A stretch of DNA of 64,000 nt, from positions 4,077,999 through 4,141,998 of the forward strand of contig JADJQR010000001.1 of NCBI GenBank assembly GCA_016712675.1. The letters run 5' to 3'. The DNA is from a bacterium (GTDB taxonomy: Bacteria > Krumholzibacteriota > Krumholzibacteriia > LZORAL124-64-63). Below, in pieces: positions 5,102 to 42,037 of the stretch; positions within the stretch are counted from its first letter, which is position 1; the number at the start of each line of letters is the position of its first letter. The notes beneath the pieces were generated by a model that was given only the letters and a program-made list of their open reading frames with translations, ran no database searches and was not told the origin of the DNA. The position numbers and the translations under genes were made by a program.

Positions 5102-6213
5102 ATGCGACGAAGGGAGCCGGCGATGAGCAGTATAACCTACGTCGGGCTGGATGTGCACAAGAGGACGATTGCCGTGGCGATGCTTCAGACCGGGACCGGG
5201 GAAGTGCTGCAGTGGGAGGTGGCGAACGAGCCGACCGCCTTGAAGCGATTGATCCGCAAGCCAAGCCGCACGCGCCGTTGCGATGTGTGTACGAGGCCGG
5301 CCCCACGGGCTACGGCCTGCAGCGGCAACTCCAGGGGAAGGGATCGATTGCATGATCGCCGCGCCGTCCCTGATCCCGGTGCGCCACGGGGACCGGGTCA
5401 AGACCGACCACCGGGACGCCCGTAAGCTGGCCCATCTGCATGCCGCGGGGCTGCTGACCGCGGTGCACCCCCGACCGAGGACGAGGAGTCGGTCCGGGAT
5501 CTGTGCCGGTGCCGGGAGGATGCGCAGCTGGACCTGGTGCGCTCACGGCAGCGCCTCGGCAAGTTCCTGCTGCGCCGGTCGCTGGTCTTCCATGACGGCA
5601 ACCAGTGGTCGCAGAGGCACCATACGTGGCTGCACGGATTGAAGTTCTCCCGGGCCGCCGACCAGGTCGTGTTCGAGGACTACATGCTGGCCCTCGAACA
5701 GCACGAGGCCCGGGTTGCGGCTCTGGACGAGCAACTGGCCGCCGTGGCCGCGCAGGACCCGTACCGCGAACCGGTGGCTCACCTTCGCTGCTTCCGCGGT
5801 ATCGACACGGTCACCGCCCTGTCCCTGGCCGCCGAGCGCACGACGTCCGCCGGTTCCCGACCGCGCCTGCACTGATGGCCTACCTCGGGCTCGTGCCGAG
5901 TGAGCACAGCAGCGGCGAACATCGACGACGAGGCGGGATCACCAAGACTGGCAACCGCCACGTCCGGCGCCTGCTGATCGAGACCGCCTGGCACTACCGG
6001 CACAAGCCCGCGGTGGGGGTGAGGCTGGCCAAGCGTCGGCGCGGGCAACCACCCCAGGTGATCGCCCGGGCTGATCGGGCGCAGCAACGGCTGTGTACGC
6101 AGTACCGGCGGCTGGTCGGCAAGAGCAAGCACCACAACACCATCGTCGTGGCCATCGCGCGGATGCTGATCGGGTACGTGTGGGAGACGCTGCGTGAGGC
6201 GCAGCCAAGTTAG
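5102..6213 (+). pseudogene. IS110-family transposase, disrupted by at least 3 frameshifts
   Basis: An N-terminal MSSITYVGLDVHKRTIAVAML (DEDD domain) and a C-terminal ...MAYLGLVPSEHSSGEHRRRGGITKTGNRHVRRLLIETAWH (IS116/IS110/IS902 domain) are spread over four overlapping ORFs in different frames (5102, 5283, 5537, 5605). Confidence 0.8.
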
Positions 6214-31399: not shown

Positions 31400-32326
31400 A
31401 TGGCGCAACCCAAAGGCTGCCTGAAGTCCTGCGGCATCGGCTGCGCGGCATTCGCCGCCTTGCTGGTGATCGGCGGCGTGATCATCTCGACGCTGGCCTG
31501 GAAGGCGCTCAACGGGGACGGCAAAGGGCGGCCGGCTGCGGATGTGGCCATCGAGGCGCCGGCCGGCTCGGTGAGCGAGCCGATGAGCGCGCGCGCGGCG
31601 CGGCTGACCACCACGCACGGCGGGCGCGTGCGGCTGGTGCTCGGTGAAGGCGAGTTCCGCCTGCGCCCGGCCAAGCCCGGTGAGGGGCTGCATGCGCGCG
31701 CCGAGTACGACTCGACGGTGCATCGCCTGACCGAGCGGTTCAGCGTGCTGCCCGATTCCTCGTGGGAATACCACCTGGACTGCCGGCAAGTGGGCTCCAC
31801 TTCGTTCCTCAAGCAGCTCTTCGGCGGCAAGCGCACGAACGCGAAGGTGACGGTGTACCTCCCGGCCGAGGTGCCCCTGGACCTGGACCTGCACGCGCGC
31901 CGCGGCGGCTGCGAGGCGGACCTGGGCGGGCTGTGGCTGCGCACGGGCGAGATCCGCTTCGACCAGGGCGGGATCGAGCTGGAGTTCAGCAGCCCTCTGC
32001 GCGAACCGATGGAGAGCCTGCGGCTGCAGGCGCGCATGGGCGGCATCTCCGCCAAGCGCGTGGGCAACGCCTCGCCGCGGGCCCTGGACATCGACTGCGC
32101 CATGGGCGGCGGCGATATCGACCTGCGCGGCGCCTGGCGCGGCGACTGCGTGGCCCGCGCCTCGGCGCGCATGGGCGGGGTCAGCCTGCAGGTGCCGGCC
32201 GAGATGCGGGTCGAGGGGCATGGCGCTTCCGAGCCGTCGCTGGCCGCCTCGAACGCCGAAGTGCCGGCGCCGGTGCTGCGGCTGACGGTCGACGCGAAGA
32301 TGGGCGAAATCGAAGTAACAAGATAG
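31400..32326 (+). CDS. Membrane-anchored protein with DUF4097/LiaF-like repetitive beta-rich C-terminal domain
   Basis: N-terminal transmembrane segment CGIGCAAFAALLVIGGVIISTLAW. Repeated GG(I/V)(S/D)x(R/K)-type segments (MGGISAKRVGN, MGGGDIDLRG, MGGVSLQVP). Confidence 0.55.
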   Translation: MAQPKGCLKSCGIGCAAFAALLVIGGVIISTLAWKALNGDGKGRPAADVAIEAPAGSVSEPMSARAARLTTTHGGRVRLVLGEGEFRLRPAKPGEGLHARAEYDSTVHRLTERFSVLPDSSWEYHLDCRQVGSTSFLKQLFGGKRTNAKVTVYLPAEVPLDLDLHARRGGCEADLGGLWLRTGEIRFDQGGIELEFSSPLREPMESLRLQARMGGISAKRVGNASPRALDIDCAMGGGDIDLRGAWRGDCVARASARMGGVSLQVPAEMRVEGHGASEPSLAASNAEVPAPVLRLTVDAKMGEIEVTR

Positions 32327-32515
32327 GTACAGCCGGCAATGCCGACGTCCAGGCGGTGGCGCACCTTTATTGCGACTGCCTTTGAATTTCTTTCTCAGCA
32401 ATAACTTGGATAAACGATGAATTGACACCCTTTGCCGCACCCCTGTAACTTCCTTTAACAGGAACGGACTGGGGATGACGTTCCTTCCCGGACTCTCGCC
32501 GTCAGGAACCTGCCC

Positions 32516-33661
<1,146 letters not shown>

Positions 33662-33665
33662 CTCC

Positions 33666-34127
33666 ATGGCGGTCAGCAAGCCGATCACGATCCTGTACGC
33701 CGAGGACGACGAGGAGGACCGCACGCTGGTCCTCGAGGCGATGCGGGAAAGTCGCCTGGGCAACCACATCGTGACCGTCAGCGATGGCGAAGAGCTGCTC
33801 GAGTACCTGCAGTGCAAGGGCCGTTACTCGGGGCGGGCCCCGGGCTTGCCCGGGCTCATCCTGCTGGACCTGAACATGCCGCGGCTGGACGGCCGCGAGG
33901 CATTGCGCGAGATCAAGGCGGACGCGGACCTGCGCCGCATCCCGGTCATCGTGCTGACGACCTCGCGGGCCGAGGAGGACATCCTGCGCACCTATGACCT
34001 GGGCATCAGCTCGTTCATCGTCAAGCCCGTGACCTTCGACAGCCTGGTCGACACGGTGCGCACGCTGGACAAGTACTGGCTGGAAATCGTGGAACTGCCC
34101 GTACCCCGGCAGTCGACGGGCGGTTGA
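33666..34127 (+). CDS. Single-domain CheY-like response regulator
   Basis: EDDEED acidic pocket, phospho-acceptor LILLDLNMP, T (VLTTS) and K (FIVKP) residues. Confidence 0.85.
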   Translation: MAVSKPITILYAEDDEEDRTLVLEAMRESRLGNHIVTVSDGEELLEYLQCKGRYSGRAPGLPGLILLDLNMPRLDGREALREIKADADLRRIPVIVLTTSRAEEDILRTYDLGISSFIVKPVTFDSLVDTVRTLDKYWLEIVELPVPRQSTGG

Positions 34128-34128
34128 G

Positions 34129-35025
34129 ATGGCGGACAATCGCGATATCCGCATCCTGCTCGTGGAGGACGACCAGGAGGACGCCGGGCTGGTGGTCTCG
34201 CTGCTGGAAGACGACTCCGCCCCCCGGTTCCTGGTCACCACGCGAACCACGCTGACGGCCGCGCTCGACGAACTGGACAACGCCACGCCCGACGCCATCC
34301 TGCTGGACTTGTCGCTGCCCGACAGCCAGGGCTTCGAGGGCCTTCGCGAGCTGGGGCGACGGCACCGGGGCGTACCCGTGGTCGTGCTGACGGGCCTCAC
34401 GGACGCGAACGCCGGGCTGGATGCGCTCGGCCTGGGCGCCGAGGACTACCTGCTCAAGGCCGGACTGAATCGCGAACTCCTGGTGCGGGCGCTCCGCTAC
34501 GCCAGGGAGCGCCGCGCGCTGCAGTGCCAGATCGAGGAGCTGCGCGAGCAGGAGCGCCGCGACCGCGAGCAGGCGGCGCTCGAACGACTGCTGGCGCCGT
34601 CGCGCACGGCGGTCACCGCGCACTTCTACGGCGCGAACGAACTGGCCGAATCCGCGCCGCAGCTGTTCGGCGAGCTGGTCACGCGCTACGGCCAGCTCCT
34701 GGAAGCGCACTTCTCGGATGCGTCGCGCGCCGGCGAACGGGCCATGTCGCGCGAACTGCAGGTGATGTCCGAGAGCCTGGGCCTGATGTACGCCGGCCCG
34801 CGCGACGTCATCCGCATGCACCAGGAGGCGCTGCGGCTGTACACCGCCACCGCGACCGACCACCTGGCCCGCGCAATGAGCAACGAAGGACGACTGATGC
34901 TGGTCGAGCTGATGGGCTACCTCGTGGCCTGGTACCGCCGCCAGGCCACCGGCCTGACCATCCAGCCCCCCGCATCCGCCGCGCCCTCGGCGCCGCGCGA
35001 GCTCGCACCGGGAAAGGAGCGCTGA
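34129..35025 (+). CDS. KaiA-like protein: canonical receiver domain fused to a KaiA C-terminal-like helical domain
   Basis: N-terminal REC with conserved DD, D (ILLDLSLPD), T (VLTG) and K (YLLKA). The C-terminal ~110 aa, RYGQLLEAHFSDASRAGERAMSRELQVMSESLGLMYAGPRDVIRMHQEALRLY...EGRLMLVELMGYLVAWYRRQ, aligns with the KaiA dimerisation/KaiC-binding domain (YRNILLEYFFSGD...VVEIHMELMDEF...EGRSEDILLDYRLTLIDVIAHLCEMYRRS). It sits directly upstream of kaiB. Confidence 0.6.
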   Translation: MADNRDIRILLVEDDQEDAGLVVSLLEDDSAPRFLVTTRTTLTAALDELDNATPDAILLDLSLPDSQGFEGLRELGRRHRGVPVVVLTGLTDANAGLDALGLGAEDYLLKAGLNRELLVRALRYARERRALQCQIEELREQERRDREQAALERLLAPSRTAVTAHFYGANELAESAPQLFGELVTRYGQLLEAHFSDASRAGERAMSRELQVMSESLGLMYAGPRDVIRMHQEALRLYTATATDHLARAMSNEGRLMLVELMGYLVAWYRRQATGLTIQPPASAAPSAPRELAPGKER

Positions 35026-35027
35026 CC

Positions 35028-35357
35028 TTGCCCACGCTGGCTTTCGAATTGTTCGTCATGGGCCGGACGCGGCAGTCGCTGGCCGCCATCCGGAACCTGC
35101 GCGCCTACTTCGCGGAGTTCCCCGACCTGGACTACGAGCTGACGATCGTCGACGTGCTCGAGCAGCCGGATCGTGCCGAGGAATCCCGCATCCTGGCCAC
35201 GCCCACGCTGGTTCGCCTGATGCCGCTGCCGTCGCTGCGCATCATCGGCGATCTGTCGGAGAAGGAGATCGTCTGGCAGACGATCGGCCTGCTCAGCGAC
35301 GACAGCGCGCGCCCCGGGAGCCACCCCAACGACGAGGGATCCAGCCATGATCGATAA
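35028..35357 (+). CDS. kaiB: Circadian clock protein KaiB homologue
   Basis: TTG start. LAFELFVMGRTRQSLAAIRNLRAYF...ILATPTLVRLMPLPSLRIIGDLS matches KaiB (YVLKLYVAGNTPNS...[23 protein letters not shown]). It overlaps the kaiC start. Confidence 0.8.
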   Translation: MPTLAFELFVMGRTRQSLAAIRNLRAYFAEFPDLDYELTIVDVLEQPDRAEESRILATPTLVRLMPLPSLRIIGDLSEKEIVWQTIGLLSDDSARPGSHPNDEGSSHDR

Positions 35358-36858
35358 GGCGATGGGACTGCCCAAGCTGCCGACCGGCATCCCTGGCTTC
35401 GACAGCATCACGAACGGCGGTCTGCCCGAGCACCGCACGACGCTCATGTCCGGCACCGCCGGCAGCGCCAAGACCGTGTTCGGCTGCCAGTACCTGGCCT
35501 CCGGCATCGAGCAGGCCGGCCAGGCGGGCGTCTTCGTCACCTTCGAGGAGCCACCGGCCGACATCCGCCGGAACATGCTCGGCTTCGGCTGGGACATCGC
35601 CGCCTGGGAGGCGGCCGGCAAGTGGGCGTTCGTCGACGTGTCGCCGCAACTGACCGACGAGACCGTGATCGGCGGCGAGTACGACCTGGGCGCCCTGCTG
35701 GCCCGCATGGAGAACGCGGTGAACCGCATCGGCGCCGAGCGACTGGTCATGGACTCGCTCGGGGCGGTGTTCACGCAGATCGCCCAGTCCAAGATCGTGC
35801 GCAACGAGATGCTGCGCATCACGACGGCCCTGAAGAAGCTGGGCGTCACCTCCATCCTCACCGCCGAGCGGACCGAGGAGTTCGGTGCCATCGCCCGCTA
35901 CGGCATCGAGGAGTTCGTCACCGACAACGTGGTCGTGCTGCGCAACATCCTGGAGGACGAGAAGCGGCGCCGGACCATCGAGATCCTCAAGTTCCGCGGC
36001 ACCGACCACCAGAAGGGCGAGTACCCGTTCACGATCCACCCGAAGGGCGGCATCATCGTGCTGCCGCTGTCGGCCCTGGAGCTGAAGCAGCAGTCGACGG
36101 ACCTGCGCATCAGCTCGGGCAACACGGTCCTGGACGACATGTGCGGGGGCGGCTTCTTCCGCGACTCGGTGATCCTGGTCTCGGGCGCCACCGGCACCGG
36201 CAAGACGCTGACCGTGACCCAGTTCATCAACGGCGGCGCCGCGCAGGGCGAGCGGTGCCTGCTGTTCGCATTCGAGGAAAGCCGCGAGCAGCTGTTCCGC
36301 AATGCTCGCGGCTGGGGCCTGGACTTCCGTGAACTGGAGGAGTCAGGCTGCCTGCGCGTCATCTGCACGTACCCGGAAGTGGCCGGCCTCGAGGACCACC
36401 TCGTGGCGATGAAGGCCGAGATCGAGACGTTCAAGCCCAACCGCGTCGCCGTCGACAGCCTGTCGGCGCTCGAGCGCGTGGGCACCGTCAAGGGCTTCCG
36501 CGAGTTCGTGATCGGGCTGACGTCGTTCATCAAGCACCACGAGATGGCCGGCCTGTTCACGGCCACCACCCCCACCCTGCTGGGCGGCGCTTCGGTCACC
36601 GAGGCGCACATCTCGACGATCACCGACTCCATCCTCCTGCTGCGCTACGTGGAGATGTACGGCGTCATGCGCCGCGGCATGACGGTGCTGAAGATGCGCG
36701 GCTCGATGCATGACAAGGAGATCCGCGAGGTCTCGATCGACAGCAGCGGCATGCACATCGGCGCGCCGTTCCGCAACGTGTCGGGCATCCTGGCCGGCGT
36801 GCCCGTGCACGCCTCCGAGCGCGAGATCGCCCGGCTCAACGACATGTTCGGGCAATGA
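35347..36858 (+). CDS. kaiC: Circadian clock protein KaiC homologue (double RecA-like ATPase)
   Basis: CI and CII Walker A motifs GTAGSAKT and GATGTGKT. Conserved phosphosite context EAHISTITD. A C-terminal A-loop/tail-like extension, FRNVSGILAGVPVHASEREIARLNDMF. Confidence 0.9.
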   Translation: MIDKAMGLPKLPTGIPGFDSITNGGLPEHRTTLMSGTAGSAKTVFGCQYLASGIEQAGQAGVFVTFEEPPADIRRNMLGFGWDIAAWEAAGKWAFVDVSPQLTDETVIGGEYDLGALLARMENAVNRIGAERLVMDSLGAVFTQIAQSKIVRNEMLRITTALKKLGVTSILTAERTEEFGAIARYGIEEFVTDNVVVLRNILEDEKRRRTIEILKFRGTDHQKGEYPFTIHPKGGIIVLPLSALELKQQSTDLRISSGNTVLDDMCGGGFFRDSVILVSGATGTGKTLTVTQFINGGAAQGERCLLFAFEESREQLFRNARGWGLDFRELEESGCLRVICTYPEVAGLEDHLVAMKAEIETFKPNRVAVDSLSALERVGTVKGFREFVIGLTSFIKHHEMAGLFTATTPTLLGGASVTEAHISTITDSILLLRYVEMYGVMRRGMTVLKMRGSMHDKEIREVSIDSSGMHIGAPFRNVSGILAGVPVHASEREIARLNDMFGQ

Positions 36859-38798
36859 GCCTGGTGAACGACCGGCAGCGGCGCGAGGATCTGGACGTCC
36901 TCCTCATCGAGGACGATGCCGACGATCGCGCACTGGTCCGCGAGATCCTGGCCGAGGTCTGCCTGGGTCCGTCCGGCGCCGGCCGCTGCCGGCAGAGCGA
37001 CGCCGCGACGCTGGCCGAGGCGCTGGCGATCCTGGGCGAGACGTCCTTCGACGTGATCCTCCTGGACCTGCACCTGCCGGACGCGGCCGGCCTGGAGGCG
37101 CTGGTCCGGGTGACGTCGGCCCAGGGCCTGGCGCCCGTTCTGATCCTGACCGACCTGCACGACGAGGCGGCCGGCCTGGCCGCGGTCCGCGAGGGCGCCC
37201 AGGACTTCCTGGTGAAGGACCGGCTGGACGGCCCGCGGCTGGGGCGGGCGATCGCCTACGCCATCGAGCGCCACCGGATGCGGCGCGAGGTCGCGATACG
37301 GGCGCGCGAGCTGTCGGCCAGCGAGGACCGGCTGCGCCGGCTCATCGCCGCGGCTCCCGACGGGATCGTCATCACCGACCGCGAGGGTGTAGTCGCCTTC
37401 TGCAACCCCGCCGCCGAGGTGCTCTTCAACCGGCCGCGCTCGGCGCTGATCGGCAGTCCGCTGGGCCTGCCGGTCGACGGCAGCCGCAATGAACTGGAAC
37501 TGCGCCGGCCGGACGGGCGTCCGCTGACGGCGGAGATGCGCGTGGCGCCGGTCGAGTGGCTCGGCCTGCCGGGCTACCTGGCGAACTTCCGCGACATCTC
37601 GGCGCACAAGGAGACGCTGCAGCAGCTGGACGACATGCGCGTGCGTCAGATCATGGTCCGCGACCAGTTCCTGTCGCACGTCTCGCACGAACTGCGGACG
37701 CCGCTGACGGTGGCCCAGCAATGGGTCGCGCTCCTGCGCGACGGCCTGATCGGAGCGGTCAGCGACGAGCAGAAGACGGCGCTGGAGACCGTGCTGCGCA
37801 ACTGCCGCCATCTCGAGAAGCTGATCGAGGACCTGCTCGAGGCACAACGCAGCGAGACCGGCAAACTGCGCGTTGAGCCGCTGCGCGCCCCGCTCCGTGG
37901 GCTTGTCGACGACGCCATCGCCTCGGTGCGGGCGGCCCAGCGCACCGATACGGTCCGCTTCGGCGCCGACCTGCCGAACGCGCTGCCGGACCTGCTGGCC
38001 GACCCGGGCCGCATCCGGCAGGTGCTGATCAACCTGTTGAGCAACGCCGCGCGCTTCACGCCCGCCGACGGCTCGATCACGGTCACGGCGATGATGGAGC
38101 CCCATGCCCCGGGCGAAATGCGCGTCTCGGTCAACGACACCGGCTGCGGCATCCCGCCCGCGGAGCAGGAGCGCATCTTCGAGCACCTCTACCAGCGCGA
38201 GACCGAGACGGAGATCGGCCGGCGTGGACTGGGGCTGGGCCTGTACATCTGCCGCCAGATCGTCACGCAGCACGGAGGGCGCATCTGGCTGGATAGCACC
38301 GAGGGGCGTGGCAGCACGTTCCACTTCACGGTGCCGGTGTTCTCCTGCCGCGCGATGCTCGCGAAGCTCCCGGTGCACGCCACCGGCGGCGGCGCCCTGT
38401 GCCTGGTGGGCATCGATGCACGCCCGGTCGGCGGCCCGCTGCAGGCTTTCGAGGTGCGGTACCTCGACGCCATGCGGCGCGTGGCCGGAGAGTGCCTGAT
38501 GCCCGACCGCGACCTCCTGCTGCCGCGCCTGACCTGCGACGAGCAGGGGGAGCTTGCCTTCATCGTCGCCACCGCCGATGCCGCCGGAACCGCCGTACTC
38601 GTGGACCGGCTGCGCAACCAGCTTGAGGCTGCCGGGGACACGGGGGCAACGCGCCTGGACTTCCGCTTCGATGCGGCCCCCCTGGCGGTGGTGCCTCGGA
38701 TTGGACGGGCGACCGATGCCTGGCTGGACGAAGCCGCTCTTGCCCTCCAGGACGAGCTGGAGCGCATGACACGGGCGGCCGGGCGCCAGCTCGACTGA
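36855..38798 (+). CDS. Hybrid REC-PAS-histidine kinase with a C-terminal ~190-aa domain of unknown function
   Basis: N-terminal receiver (LLIEDDADD...ILLDLHLPD...FLVKD), PAS domain, H-box VSHELRTPL and HATPase_c (NLLSNAARF, DTGCGI, GLGLGLYICR). ATGA overlap with the kaiC stop. Confidence 0.85.
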   Translation: MSLVNDRQRREDLDVLLIEDDADDRALVREILAEVCLGPSGAGRCRQSDAATLAEALAILGETSFDVILLDLHLPDAAGLEALVRVTSAQGLAPVLILTDLHDEAAGLAAVREGAQDFLVKDRLDGPRLGRAIAYAIERHRMRREVAIRARELSASEDRLRRLIAAAPDGIVITDREGVVAFCNPAAEVLFNRPRSALIGSPLGLPVDGSRNELELRRPDGRPLTAEMRVAPVEWLGLPGYLANFRDISAHKETLQQLDDMRVRQIMVRDQFLSHVSHELRTPLTVAQQWVALLRDGLIGAVSDEQKTALETVLRNCRHLEKLIEDLLEAQRSETGKLRVEPLRAPLRGLVDDAIASVRAAQRTDTVRFGADLPNALPDLLADPGRIRQVLINLLSNAARFTPADGSITVTAMMEPHAPGEMRVSVNDTGCGIPPAEQERIFEHLYQRETETEIGRRGLGLGLYICRQIVTQHGGRIWLDSTEGRGSTFHFTVPVFSCRAMLAKLPVHATGGGALCLVGIDARPVGGPLQAFEVRYLDAMRRVAGECLMPDRDLLLPRLTCDEQGELAFIVATADAAGTAVLVDRLRNQLEAAGDTGATRLDFRFDAAPLAVVPRIGRATDAWLDEAALALQDELERMTRAAGRQLD

Positions 38799-38977
38799 AG
38801 CGCGCGAACGCCGGGCATCTGCCGGGGCGCCCGCGGCAACCGCCAGACAACGCACCGTCTTCCCGCTAAAGTTTGCCCGTATGTATCCGATGACCCCGCT
38901 CGGCATGGCCGCCGCCATGGATCTCACCGCGCGTGTGCCCAGCCGGCAGGGCCACGGTGTCTGCGAAAGGGTCTACG

Positions 38978-39373
38978 ATGAGTCGAGCTCGCATCCTGCT
39001 GGTGGACGACGACGCCGACCTGCTCGAGGCCGTGCGTATCCGCCTGCGATCCGCCGGCTACGAGGTGCACACGGCCGGCGACGGCGTCCAGGCCACGCGC
39101 CTGGCGCGCCTCGAGCAACCCGACCTGGTGGTGCTGGATATCGGCATGCCCGGGGGCGACGGTCACACCGTGGCCAACCGTCTGAAGAACGACCCGGTCA
39201 CGATGTTCACGCCGATCGTGTTCCTGACCGCGCGCACGAACGAGAGCGACTTCGAGCGCGCGCGGCAGAACCACGTGGACAAGTACCTGGTCAAGCCGTT
39301 CCAGGTGGACGAACTGGTGCTGGCGGTCGATGAGCTCGTGGAACGGGCCGCGCGGGCGAGCCTCGCCGTCTGA
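38978..39373 (+). CDS. Single-domain CheY-like response regulator
   Basis: ILLVDDDADLLEAV...VVLDIGMPGGDGH...VFLTAR...YLVKP. Confidence 0.85.
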   Translation: MSRARILLVDDDADLLEAVRIRLRSAGYEVHTAGDGVQATRLARLEQPDLVVLDIGMPGGDGHTVANRLKNDPVTMFTPIVFLTARTNESDFERARQNHVDKYLVKPFQVDELVLAVDELVERAARASLAV

Positions 39374-39415
39374 CGGACGGCCGCGCACCGACGGACCGGT
39401 CACGAACGCCGCCGC

Positions 39416-42037
<2,622 letters not shown>

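Follow-up and report, generated by a model that had tools for sequence, protein, structure and literature searches.

We report that a 64,000-nucleotide stretch of DNA (the window), taken from contig JADJQR010000001.1 of an uncultured member of the Krumholzibacteriota, carries what homology identifies as a kaiA3-kaiB-kaiC module. The two-domain KaiC encoded there by an open reading frame of the forward strand (35347-36858) probably both belongs to this module and depends on the KaiA3-like protein as its activator. The initial annotation of kaiC had proposed a KaiA-dependent mechanism. Dependence on an activator is probably right because a kaiA3-like gene adjoins, the gene order kaiA3-kaiB-kaiC is conserved and a distal motif of the KaiC tail tracks linkage to KaiA3. 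The partner, on the other hand, does not appear to be canonical KaiA, since no Pfam KaiA match above threshold was found in the operon and Synechococcus KaiA is without effect on the KaiC3 protein of Synechocystis (PMC11372060). The kaiC gene itself is real and was already annotated as such, the identical protein standing in NCBI as MBK8167590.1, 'MAG: circadian clock protein KaiC [bacterium]' (MAG, metagenome-assembled genome). Its 503-residue product contains two copies of the KaiC/ATPase domain PF06745 (E = 1.4e-114) and passes the cut-offs of two NCBIfam equivalog models, NF006799 (709 bits, cut-off 408) and TIGR02655 (611 bits, cut-off 546).

The putative activator is encoded two genes upstream of kaiC, and its product is found in NCBI as MBK8167588.1 under the sole name 'response regulator'. 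In the description given by Koebler et al. in 2024, KaiA3 joins a receiver to a KaiA-like domain, and its gene precedes kaiB3 (PMC11372060). The window protein consists of a receiver (residues 9-118, PF00072, E = 4.7e-18) with the phospho-acceptor D60, a long connecting helix and a four-helix domain spanning residues ~177-274; among 32 full-length homologues, D14, D60 and K110 are invariant and T88 nearly so. No NCBIfam model was matched at its cut-off by this protein, its C-terminal domain of 170 residues submitted alone had no Pfam match, and the seven operon proteins scanned gave no Pfam KaiA match at E <= 0.01. A profile of that domain built from 23 homologues had as its 12 best Protein Data Bank (PDB) matches KaiA C-terminal domains, those of Thermosynechococcus, Anabaena and Synechococcus among them, or RsbU_N domains, the best at E = 0.011. 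Similarly, the Pfam KaiA family PF07688 matches three of the 23 homologues, as does RsbU_N. AlphaFold (AF2) models of the full-length protein and of the C-terminal domain, with mean predicted local distance difference test scores of 85.7 and 84.0, respectively, show four longer helices besides the receiver and the long connecting helix, with a linker of lower confidence that contains two very short helices. In Foldseek searches of the PDB, the full-length model retrieved only receiver domains, and the best matches of the C-terminal domain were again KaiA C-terminal domains (probability 0.96-0.99, TM scores 0.55-0.68) and RsbU_N. Finally, hhalign aligned the domain with two KaiA sequences over 81 columns (E = 1.7e-4) in the same register as HMMER. 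As several individually weak methods converge on the same two families, we regard the C-terminal domain as KaiA-like. KaiA and RsbU_N are also the two folds named for the KaiA3 C-terminal domain by Koebler et al. 2024 (PMC11372060).

More direct evidence comes from BLASTP. Residues 4-277 of the window protein align at 33-36% identity (E = 1e-44 to 1e-50) with the products of the genes that precede kaiB-kaiC in Crocosphaera and Cyanothece, a homology that extends over its full length; the reference proteins here, as for KaiC3 below, were those of unicellular cyanobacteria such as Crocosphaera and Cyanothece, in place of Synechocystis KaiA3 (Sll0485) and KaiC3. Cyanothece and Chloroflexus are both listed as KaiA3 hosts (PMC11372060 supplement). 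Judging from these relationships, the gene product is KaiA3-like, not a classical KaiA, and is probably the activator of KaiC.

Some further observations bear on the family to which this protein belongs. In the Chloroflexus loci, alignment with the window protein is limited to the C-terminal domain. When clustered at 50% identity, that domain family comprises 1,926 clusters at a cut-off of E <= 0.001 and 1,594 at E <= 1e-10. Lengths among its 150 top-scoring proteins run from 163 to 1,002 residues, and the domain must therefore occur alone and also behind N-terminal regions other than a single receiver. One metagenomic homologue of 402 residues, P0016, has both PF00072 and PF07689 domains and may represent either a fusion of KaiA3 with KaiB or a gene call that reads through.

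The gene order in relatives further links the three genes. We scanned one genome per prokaryotic species for KaiC and retained the best-scoring 80 of 263 matches, which is a non-random sample. Upstream sequence of 1.5 kb or more is available for 71 of the loci. Fifty-five of them carry a KaiA3-like gene ahead of kaiC, and in all but one of these (54) a kaiB is detectable in between. The other 16 loci have kaiB only (nine) or neither gene (seven, six of which are cyanobacterial); in Synechocystis, kaiC3 lies apart from kaiA3B3 (PMC11372060). Loci of the kaiA3-kaiB-kaiC type are labelled as Chloroflexota, Planctomycetota, Desulfobacterium/Syntrophobacteraceae/Desulfovibrionaceae, Blastocatellia, Latescibacterota, Gammaproteobacteria, Myxococcales, Ignavibacteriaceae and Kosmotogales/Petrotogaceae. 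As for the closest relatives of the window KaiC within the sample, the two at 91% identity, from MAGs labelled 'bacterium', have kaiA3, and the locus of the 93% identical Candidatus Krumholzibacteriia MAG ends before the position where kaiA3 would be.

After these three MAGs, the nearest KaiCs in the sample are those of Chloroflexus and other Chloroflexota (70-72% identity), followed by those of unicellular cyanobacteria (Crocosphaera, Cyanothece, Hydrococcus and Geminocystis; 66-69%). These cyanobacterial genes are the KaiC3 copies, which lie next to kaiA3-kaiB3, and Cyanothece and Synechocystis KaiC3 are known to oscillate with their own KaiB and KaiA3 (PMC12081879). A quick neighbour-joining tree, built without support values, places the window KaiC inside the radiation that holds the cyanobacterial KaiC3 clade. 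Among solved structures, the best HMMER match is 8ZN5 (E = 2.8e-205), the ancestral KaiC-beta reconstructed by Mukaiyama et al. 2025 (PMC12081879), followed by KaiC of Thermosynechococcus elongatus (1e-174), Synechococcus elongatus (1e-167) and Rhodobacter sphaeroides (3.5e-96). Identity over the core (residues 10-470) is 73% with Chloroflexus KaiC, 69% with Crocosphaera KaiC3, 64% with KaiC-beta and 56% with T. elongatus KaiC1; for these identities and for the residue comparisons, the T. elongatus and KaiC-beta sequences were taken from printed HMMER alignments, which omit the extreme termini. Only seven residues follow the aligned core, compared with 80 in R. sphaeroides KaiC (PDB 8DBA). On these sequence features the protein is a KaiC3-type KaiC, without the extension of KaiC2. 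The comparison with KaiC1, KaiC2 and KaiC3 that the initial annotation had in view confirmed its observation, in that the phosphosites and the A-loop are in register; the protein is not of the KaiC1 type (69% identity to KaiC3, 56% to KaiC1), and the features of KaiC2 are absent.

The phosphorylation sites and catalytic residues are those of an ordinary KaiC of this clade. The EAHISTITD segment, which had been proposed to be the phosphosite motif, indeed stands in that context: S423 and T424 pair with S431 and T432, and T418 with T426, all without gaps, in HMMER alignments to the Thermosynechococcus and Synechococcus KaiC structures. S423 and T424 even have the same residue numbers as the phosphosites of Synechocystis KaiC3, Ser423 and Thr424, determined by liquid chromatography-tandem mass spectrometry (PMC11372060). 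The Ser-Thr pair is kept in all 69 tabulated KaiCs of the clade, except for two with Ser at the second position. Conservation of the catalytic Glu, which also had to be checked, was found in both halves of the protein (E67/E68 in CI and E310/E311 in CII). In the CI P-loop, GTAGSAKT, the second canonical Gly of the GxxxxGK[ST] motif is Ala. Ala or Ser is present at this position in 59 of the 60 KaiA3-linked KaiCs; Gly is kept in six Gemmatimonadaceae-type KaiCs without KaiA3, in KaiC1 and in ancestral KaiC-beta.

The C-terminus had been assigned to the A-loop and tail that KaiA binds. This assignment holds as regards position: 29 residues are in register, and a profile of 32 tails of the KaiC3 clade aligns without gaps to residues 433-510 of S. 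elongatus KaiC, so that the length and register of the A-loop are canonical. F475, S479, I481, P486, V487 and A489 of the window protein correspond to F483, E487, I489, P494, T495 and I497 of S. elongatus, and further on E493, L497, M500 and F501 to E501, L505, I508 and V509; the C-terminus stops ~8 residues short of the S. elongatus end. Searched alone against the PDB with phmmer, the last 36 residues match only ancestral KaiC-beta (E = 0.018), apart from a chance match to RNA 3'-terminal phosphate cyclase (E = 0.46), and no extant KaiC1 was retrieved. As far as the sequences go, the similarity of the tail to KaiC1 is a positional homology within a strongly homologous protein, which is not significant alone.

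What does not hold is the use of the A-loop and tail as a sign of KaiA dependence. The FRNV(S/T)GIL(A/S)G-P segment is the same in KaiA3-linked KaiCs and in Gemmatimonadaceae and Alphaproteobacteria relatives that have no KaiA-like gene upstream, and because these relatives share the loop, it does not discriminate for activator dependence. Moreover, the network of residues that buries the A-loop in KaiC1 is not present. E487, T495 and Q441 are replaced by S479, V487 and R433, and the replacements are clade-wide (S/T, V/M/T and R, respectively). The only acidic or basic residue of the A-loop equivalent (S479-A489) is His488.

A more informative signal lies in the distal part of the tail. In all 60 KaiA3-linked KaiCs, the window protein included, the part of the tail between the FRN motif and a Phe located 26 residues further on (F501 here) contains no gap. 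This Phe and the Leu or Met that precedes it are conserved in 60 of 60 sequences, a Glu eight residues before the Phe in 59 and an Arg five residues before it in 58, with an aliphatic residue four before. E493, R496, L497, M500 and F501 are spaced i, i+3, i+4, i+7 and i+8, that is, on one face of a helix. By contrast, the [LM]-F motif is missing from nine of the ten non-cyanobacterial KaiCs for which the complete upstream sequence contains no KaiA3-like gene. In six of the nine, five of them labelled Gemmatimonadaceae or Gemmatimonadales, D-L-E-R-V-W is followed by an Arg-rich extension, and the three others, from Alphaproteobacteria, are truncated or unrelated past the A-loop. The full motif is thus found in 60/60 linked and 1/10 unlinked proteins, and F501 alone in 60/60 and 3/10 (Fisher's exact p = 1e-7, uncorrected for phylogeny). 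This association of the motif with KaiA3 is suggestive, not proven. On the basis of these sequence patterns, we propose that the KaiA3-like protein docks on the helix formed by the distal motif. Where KaiA3 acts on KaiC3 has been left open, with the comment that the contacts known between KaiA and KaiC are poorly conserved and that co-evolution is likely (PMC11372060); our own limited literature search found no specific KaiA-contacting residues of KaiC.

Two observations on these tails may be added. The Arg-rich extensions of the Gemmatimonadaceae type are 14-30 residues long, e.g. ...ERRRGDERRGRR (loci L055, L065, L070, L074, L076 and L080). The tenth locus without an upstream KaiA3-like gene, L048 from a Syntrophobacteraceae MAG, retains the tail motif in full, and its KaiA3-like gene follows kaiC, at positions 5153-5572 of the locus.

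Several points weigh against dependence on a KaiA3-like activator. The link between the C-terminal domain of that protein and KaiA is weak by each method (E = 0.011 for the profile search, E = 0.15 for Foldseek and a probability of 50% for hhalign). The association between motif and KaiA3 reduces to about three independent lineages, of which one is a Gemmatimonadaceae clade and the remaining one or two are alphaproteobacterial, and that the KaiA3-like protein binds the tail is our prediction. The CI P-loop departs from GxxxxGK[ST], which may have consequences for the CI ATPase, the activity that sets clock speed. More generally, the functional role of this KaiC, and of Kai proteins in Krumholzibacteriota, is predicted from sequence. 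Lastly, with the A-loop-burying residues absent, the unassisted kinase might be active already, as Schmelling et al. predicted in 2017.

The last point leads to the alternative of a KaiA-independent KaiBC timer or switch, in which KaiC autophosphorylates unaided and the upstream response regulator is merely a two-component input or output. Schmelling et al. 2017 predicted KaiA-independence of KaiC3 from the loss of the same A-loop residues that are replaced by S, V and R here, and noted at the same time that several KaiA-contacting tail residues are retained (PMC5520375). In KaiC1, Q441 is the hydrogen-bond partner of I489, and ancestral KaiC-beta, in which Arg takes the place of Q441 and Thr that of E487, lacks this bond and has a destabilised A-loop (PMC12081879). 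The abundance of histidine kinases and response regulators in the operon would also fit a two-component role of the upstream protein. Nevertheless, Synechocystis KaiC3, from a clade with the same Arg at Q441, is unphosphorylated without KaiA3 (PMC11372060). Added to this are the homology of the upstream protein to cyanobacterial KaiA3, the retention of the kaiA3-kaiB-kaiC order over many phyla and the invariance of the distal tail motif only where KaiA3 is linked. We consider an activator-free timer unlikely on balance.

Far less probable is a canonical KaiA-dependent KaiC whose tail would be bound by a classical KaiA from another part of the genome. The A-loop and tail do run collinear with those of KaiC1, and the hydrophobic positions L505, I508 and V509 are retained in L497, M500 and F501. 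Yet the sole KaiA-like domain within the window is of the KaiA3 type, and identity is 56% to KaiC1 against 69-73% to proteins of the KaiC3 clade. The absence of any effect of Synechococcus KaiA on Synechocystis KaiC3 (PMC11372060) speaks against it as well, as does the failure of KaiC-beta, which is the nearest of the solved sequences, to oscillate with S. elongatus KaiA or ancestral KaiA-gamma (PMC12081879). As for a KaiC2-type, Rhodobacter-like hourglass, in which a C-terminal coiled coil joins two hexamers and the A-loop is held exposed, it has in its favour only general KaiC homology (E = 3.5e-96 with R. sphaeroides KaiC) and is ruled out by a tail that is too short, with 7 residues after the core instead of 80, and by Ser-Thr phosphosites where KaiC2 has a Ser-Ser pair.

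Dependence of this KaiC3-type protein on the KaiA3-like activator remains our preferred reading. What is known of Synechocystis provides a template: KaiA3 binds KaiC3, KaiC3 is phosphorylated only when KaiA3 is present, KaiB3 promotes KaiC3 dephosphorylation, and the KaiA3B3C3 system oscillates in vitro (PMC11372060). By analogy, a dimer of the KaiA3-like protein would bind the amphipathic C-terminal helix of KaiC, through the face made up of E493, R496, L497, M500 and F501. Capture of the tail would keep the A-loop exposed, thereby promoting CII autophosphorylation on T424 and S423. KaiB would then bind the CI ring of phosphorylated KaiC and counteract the activator, and KaiC would dephosphorylate. 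It is tempting to speculate that two-component phosphorylation gates the input of this cycle or carries its output, which appears probable because the activator has a true receiver and the operon encodes two histidine kinases and two single-domain response regulators. The cycle may be free-running, or it may work as an hourglass or switch. A broader proposal, which we put forward tentatively and with some doubt, is that the invariant E-x-x-R-[LIV]-x-x-[LM]-F helices at the C-terminus of KaiC3-type proteins dock KaiA3-like activators, that a two-component signal gates the kinase-promoting arm and that three-protein Kai oscillators are widespread outside cyanobacteria. Complete KaiA3-KaiB-KaiC modules occur in Krumholzibacteriota and about ten other phyla, most of which are not known as phototrophs, and on this proposal they would represent genuine oscillators.

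The genes surrounding the module fit with the idea of a two-component connection (Table 1). The G+C content of the window is ~70% throughout. From the first histidine kinase gene to the hybrid kinase gene, the successive junctions measure 4, 1, 2, -11 and -4 nt, all genes lying on one strand; the kaiA3-like gene and kaiB are thus separated by 2 nt and kaiB and kaiC overlap by 11 nt, and the last response regulator gene follows after a 134-nt gap. A scan of positions 31800-39900 revealed no promoter-like sites, and terminator-like sites occurred at chance level. The kaiB product matches PF07689 (E = 1e-19, 70.5 bits, threshold 27). As it is above the Pfam threshold and remains below both NCBIfam equivalog cut-offs (67.9 bits for 110, and 63.7 for 145), it is a divergent KaiB. 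A second kai copy was not found in the window, which contains a single KaiA-like domain, of KaiA3 type.

Similar neighbours recur in other loci. A histidine kinase gene is present upstream of kaiA3 in ~13 other loci and a single-domain response regulator gene in ~11; the two immediately precede kaiA3 in about a dozen loci, and recurring neighbours of these kinds were noted in loci of several phyla (L002-L004, L007-L009, L039, L051, L061, L063, L077 and L078). A hybrid REC-PAS kinase gene, with a start that overlaps the kaiC stop codon, directly follows kaiC in L002, L003 and six more distant loci, and the response regulator gene downstream of the hybrid kinase gene is conserved in L001-L003. 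We see these flanking kinases and regulators as candidates for the input or the output of the Kai module.

Table 1. Location of the kai genes, their neighbours and the KaiC segments discussed in the text (window coordinates).
Feature	Position	Strand	Basis or remark
Histidine kinase (HisKA + HATPase_c)	32516-33661	+	Pfam
Single-domain response regulator	33666-34127	+	Pfam; stop 1 nt before kaiA3-like start
kaiA3-like, 298 aa, receiver + KaiA-like four-helix domain	34129-35025	+	Pfam, profiles, AF2, BLASTP
kaiB, 109 aa	35028-35357	+	PF07689; TTG start 8 nt after AAGGAG
kaiC, KaiC3-type, 503 aa	35347-36858	+	Pfam, NCBIfam, identity comparisons
CI P-loop GTAGSAKT, KaiC residues 36-43	35452-35475	+	
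CI catalytic pair E67/E68	35545-35550	+	
CII Walker A GATGTGKT	36184-36207	+	
CII FEES segment with catalytic E310/E311	36271-36282	+	Equivalent to E318/E319 of S. elongatus KaiC
EAHISTITD phosphosite motif, residues 419-427	36601-36627	+	Alignment to KaiC structures
C-terminal tail FRNVSGILAGVPVHASEREIARLNDMFGQ, residues 475-503	36769-36855	+	
A-loop equivalent S479-A489	36781-36813	+	Equivalent to E487-I497 of S. elongatus KaiC
Distal tail motif E493-I-A-R496-L497-N-D-M500-F501	36823-36849	+	Tail comparison among relatives
Hybrid REC-PAS-HisKA-HATPase histidine kinase	36855-38798	+	Pfam; ATG overlaps kaiC stop (ATGA)
Single-domain response regulator, downstream of hybrid kinase	38933-39373	+	Pfam

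Part of this was already known. KaiA3-KaiB3-KaiC3 systems have been described as a kind since 2024, the gene is named KaiC in NCBI, and the features flagged in the initial annotation are ordinary for the KaiC3 clade. The new elements are modest: a host in the Krumholzibacteriota, an activator gene that is not annotated as such, and a motif that can be tested as a docking site. The distal tail motif offers a concrete, mutable prediction for the site where KaiA3 acts on KaiC3. In addition, the lineages with the order kaiA3-kaiB-kaiC now extend far beyond the five non-cyanobacterial genera of the 2024 report.

The closest known counterpart is the KaiA3-KaiB3-KaiC3 system of Synechocystis sp. PCC 6803 (Koebler et al. 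2024, PMC11372060), together with its orthologues in Cyanothece/Crocosphaera, Chloroflexus and Roseiflexus. The window shares with these the order kaiA3-kaiB-kaiC, an activator in which a receiver that has the phospho-acceptor Asp is joined to a KaiA-like four-helix domain, the S423/T424 phosphosites and a KaiC devoid of C-terminal extension. Identity with the cyanobacterial proteins is 67-69% for KaiC (with KaiC3) and 33-36% for the KaiA3-like protein. The differences concern the host, an uncultured high-GC (~70%) Krumholzibacteriota outside the five non-cyanobacterial genera reported to have KaiA3, and the genetic context, a tightly packed operon in which the module is preceded by histidine kinase and response regulator genes and followed by a hybrid kinase gene and, after 134 nt, a further response regulator gene. 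Unlike in Synechocystis, no KaiC1 system is present alongside within the 64-kb window, and the system is known here from its genes alone.

With the KaiABC clocks of S. elongatus and Thermosynechococcus, the window system has in common a two-domain KaiC with catalytic Glu pairs, the equivalents of T426, S431 and T432, and a KaiB partner. As in KaiC1, the A-loop has the same length and the tail a conserved hydrophobic pattern. In contrast with KaiC1, to which it is only 56% identical, the window KaiC has other residues in place of E487, T495, Q441 and W462, a tail shorter by 8 residues and a CI P-loop that reads GTAGSAKT. The presumed activator has a true receiver where canonical KaiA has a pseudo-receiver, and the resemblance of its C-terminal domain to that of KaiA is distant. 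Ancestral KaiC-beta (8ZN5) resembles the window KaiC in its Arg at the Q441 position, in a small polar residue instead of E487 (Thr there, Ser here) and in 64% core identity. Unlike the window protein, however, KaiC-beta is an inferred sequence, and its distal tail, DELSRIVRD, follows the KaiC1 pattern without [LM]-F. No oscillation was obtained when KaiC-beta was combined with KaiA-gamma or with S. elongatus KaiA, neither of which is a partner of the KaiA3 type (PMC12081879). Finally, R. sphaeroides KaiBC (Pitsawong et al., bioRxiv 10.1101/2022.11.28.518275) is another non-cyanobacterial KaiB-KaiC pair. Its KaiC, in contrast to that of the window, assembles into a dodecamer, exceeds other KaiC clades in length by ~50 residues through a C-terminal coiled coil, carries a Ser-Ser phosphosite pair and works with no KaiA-like partner.

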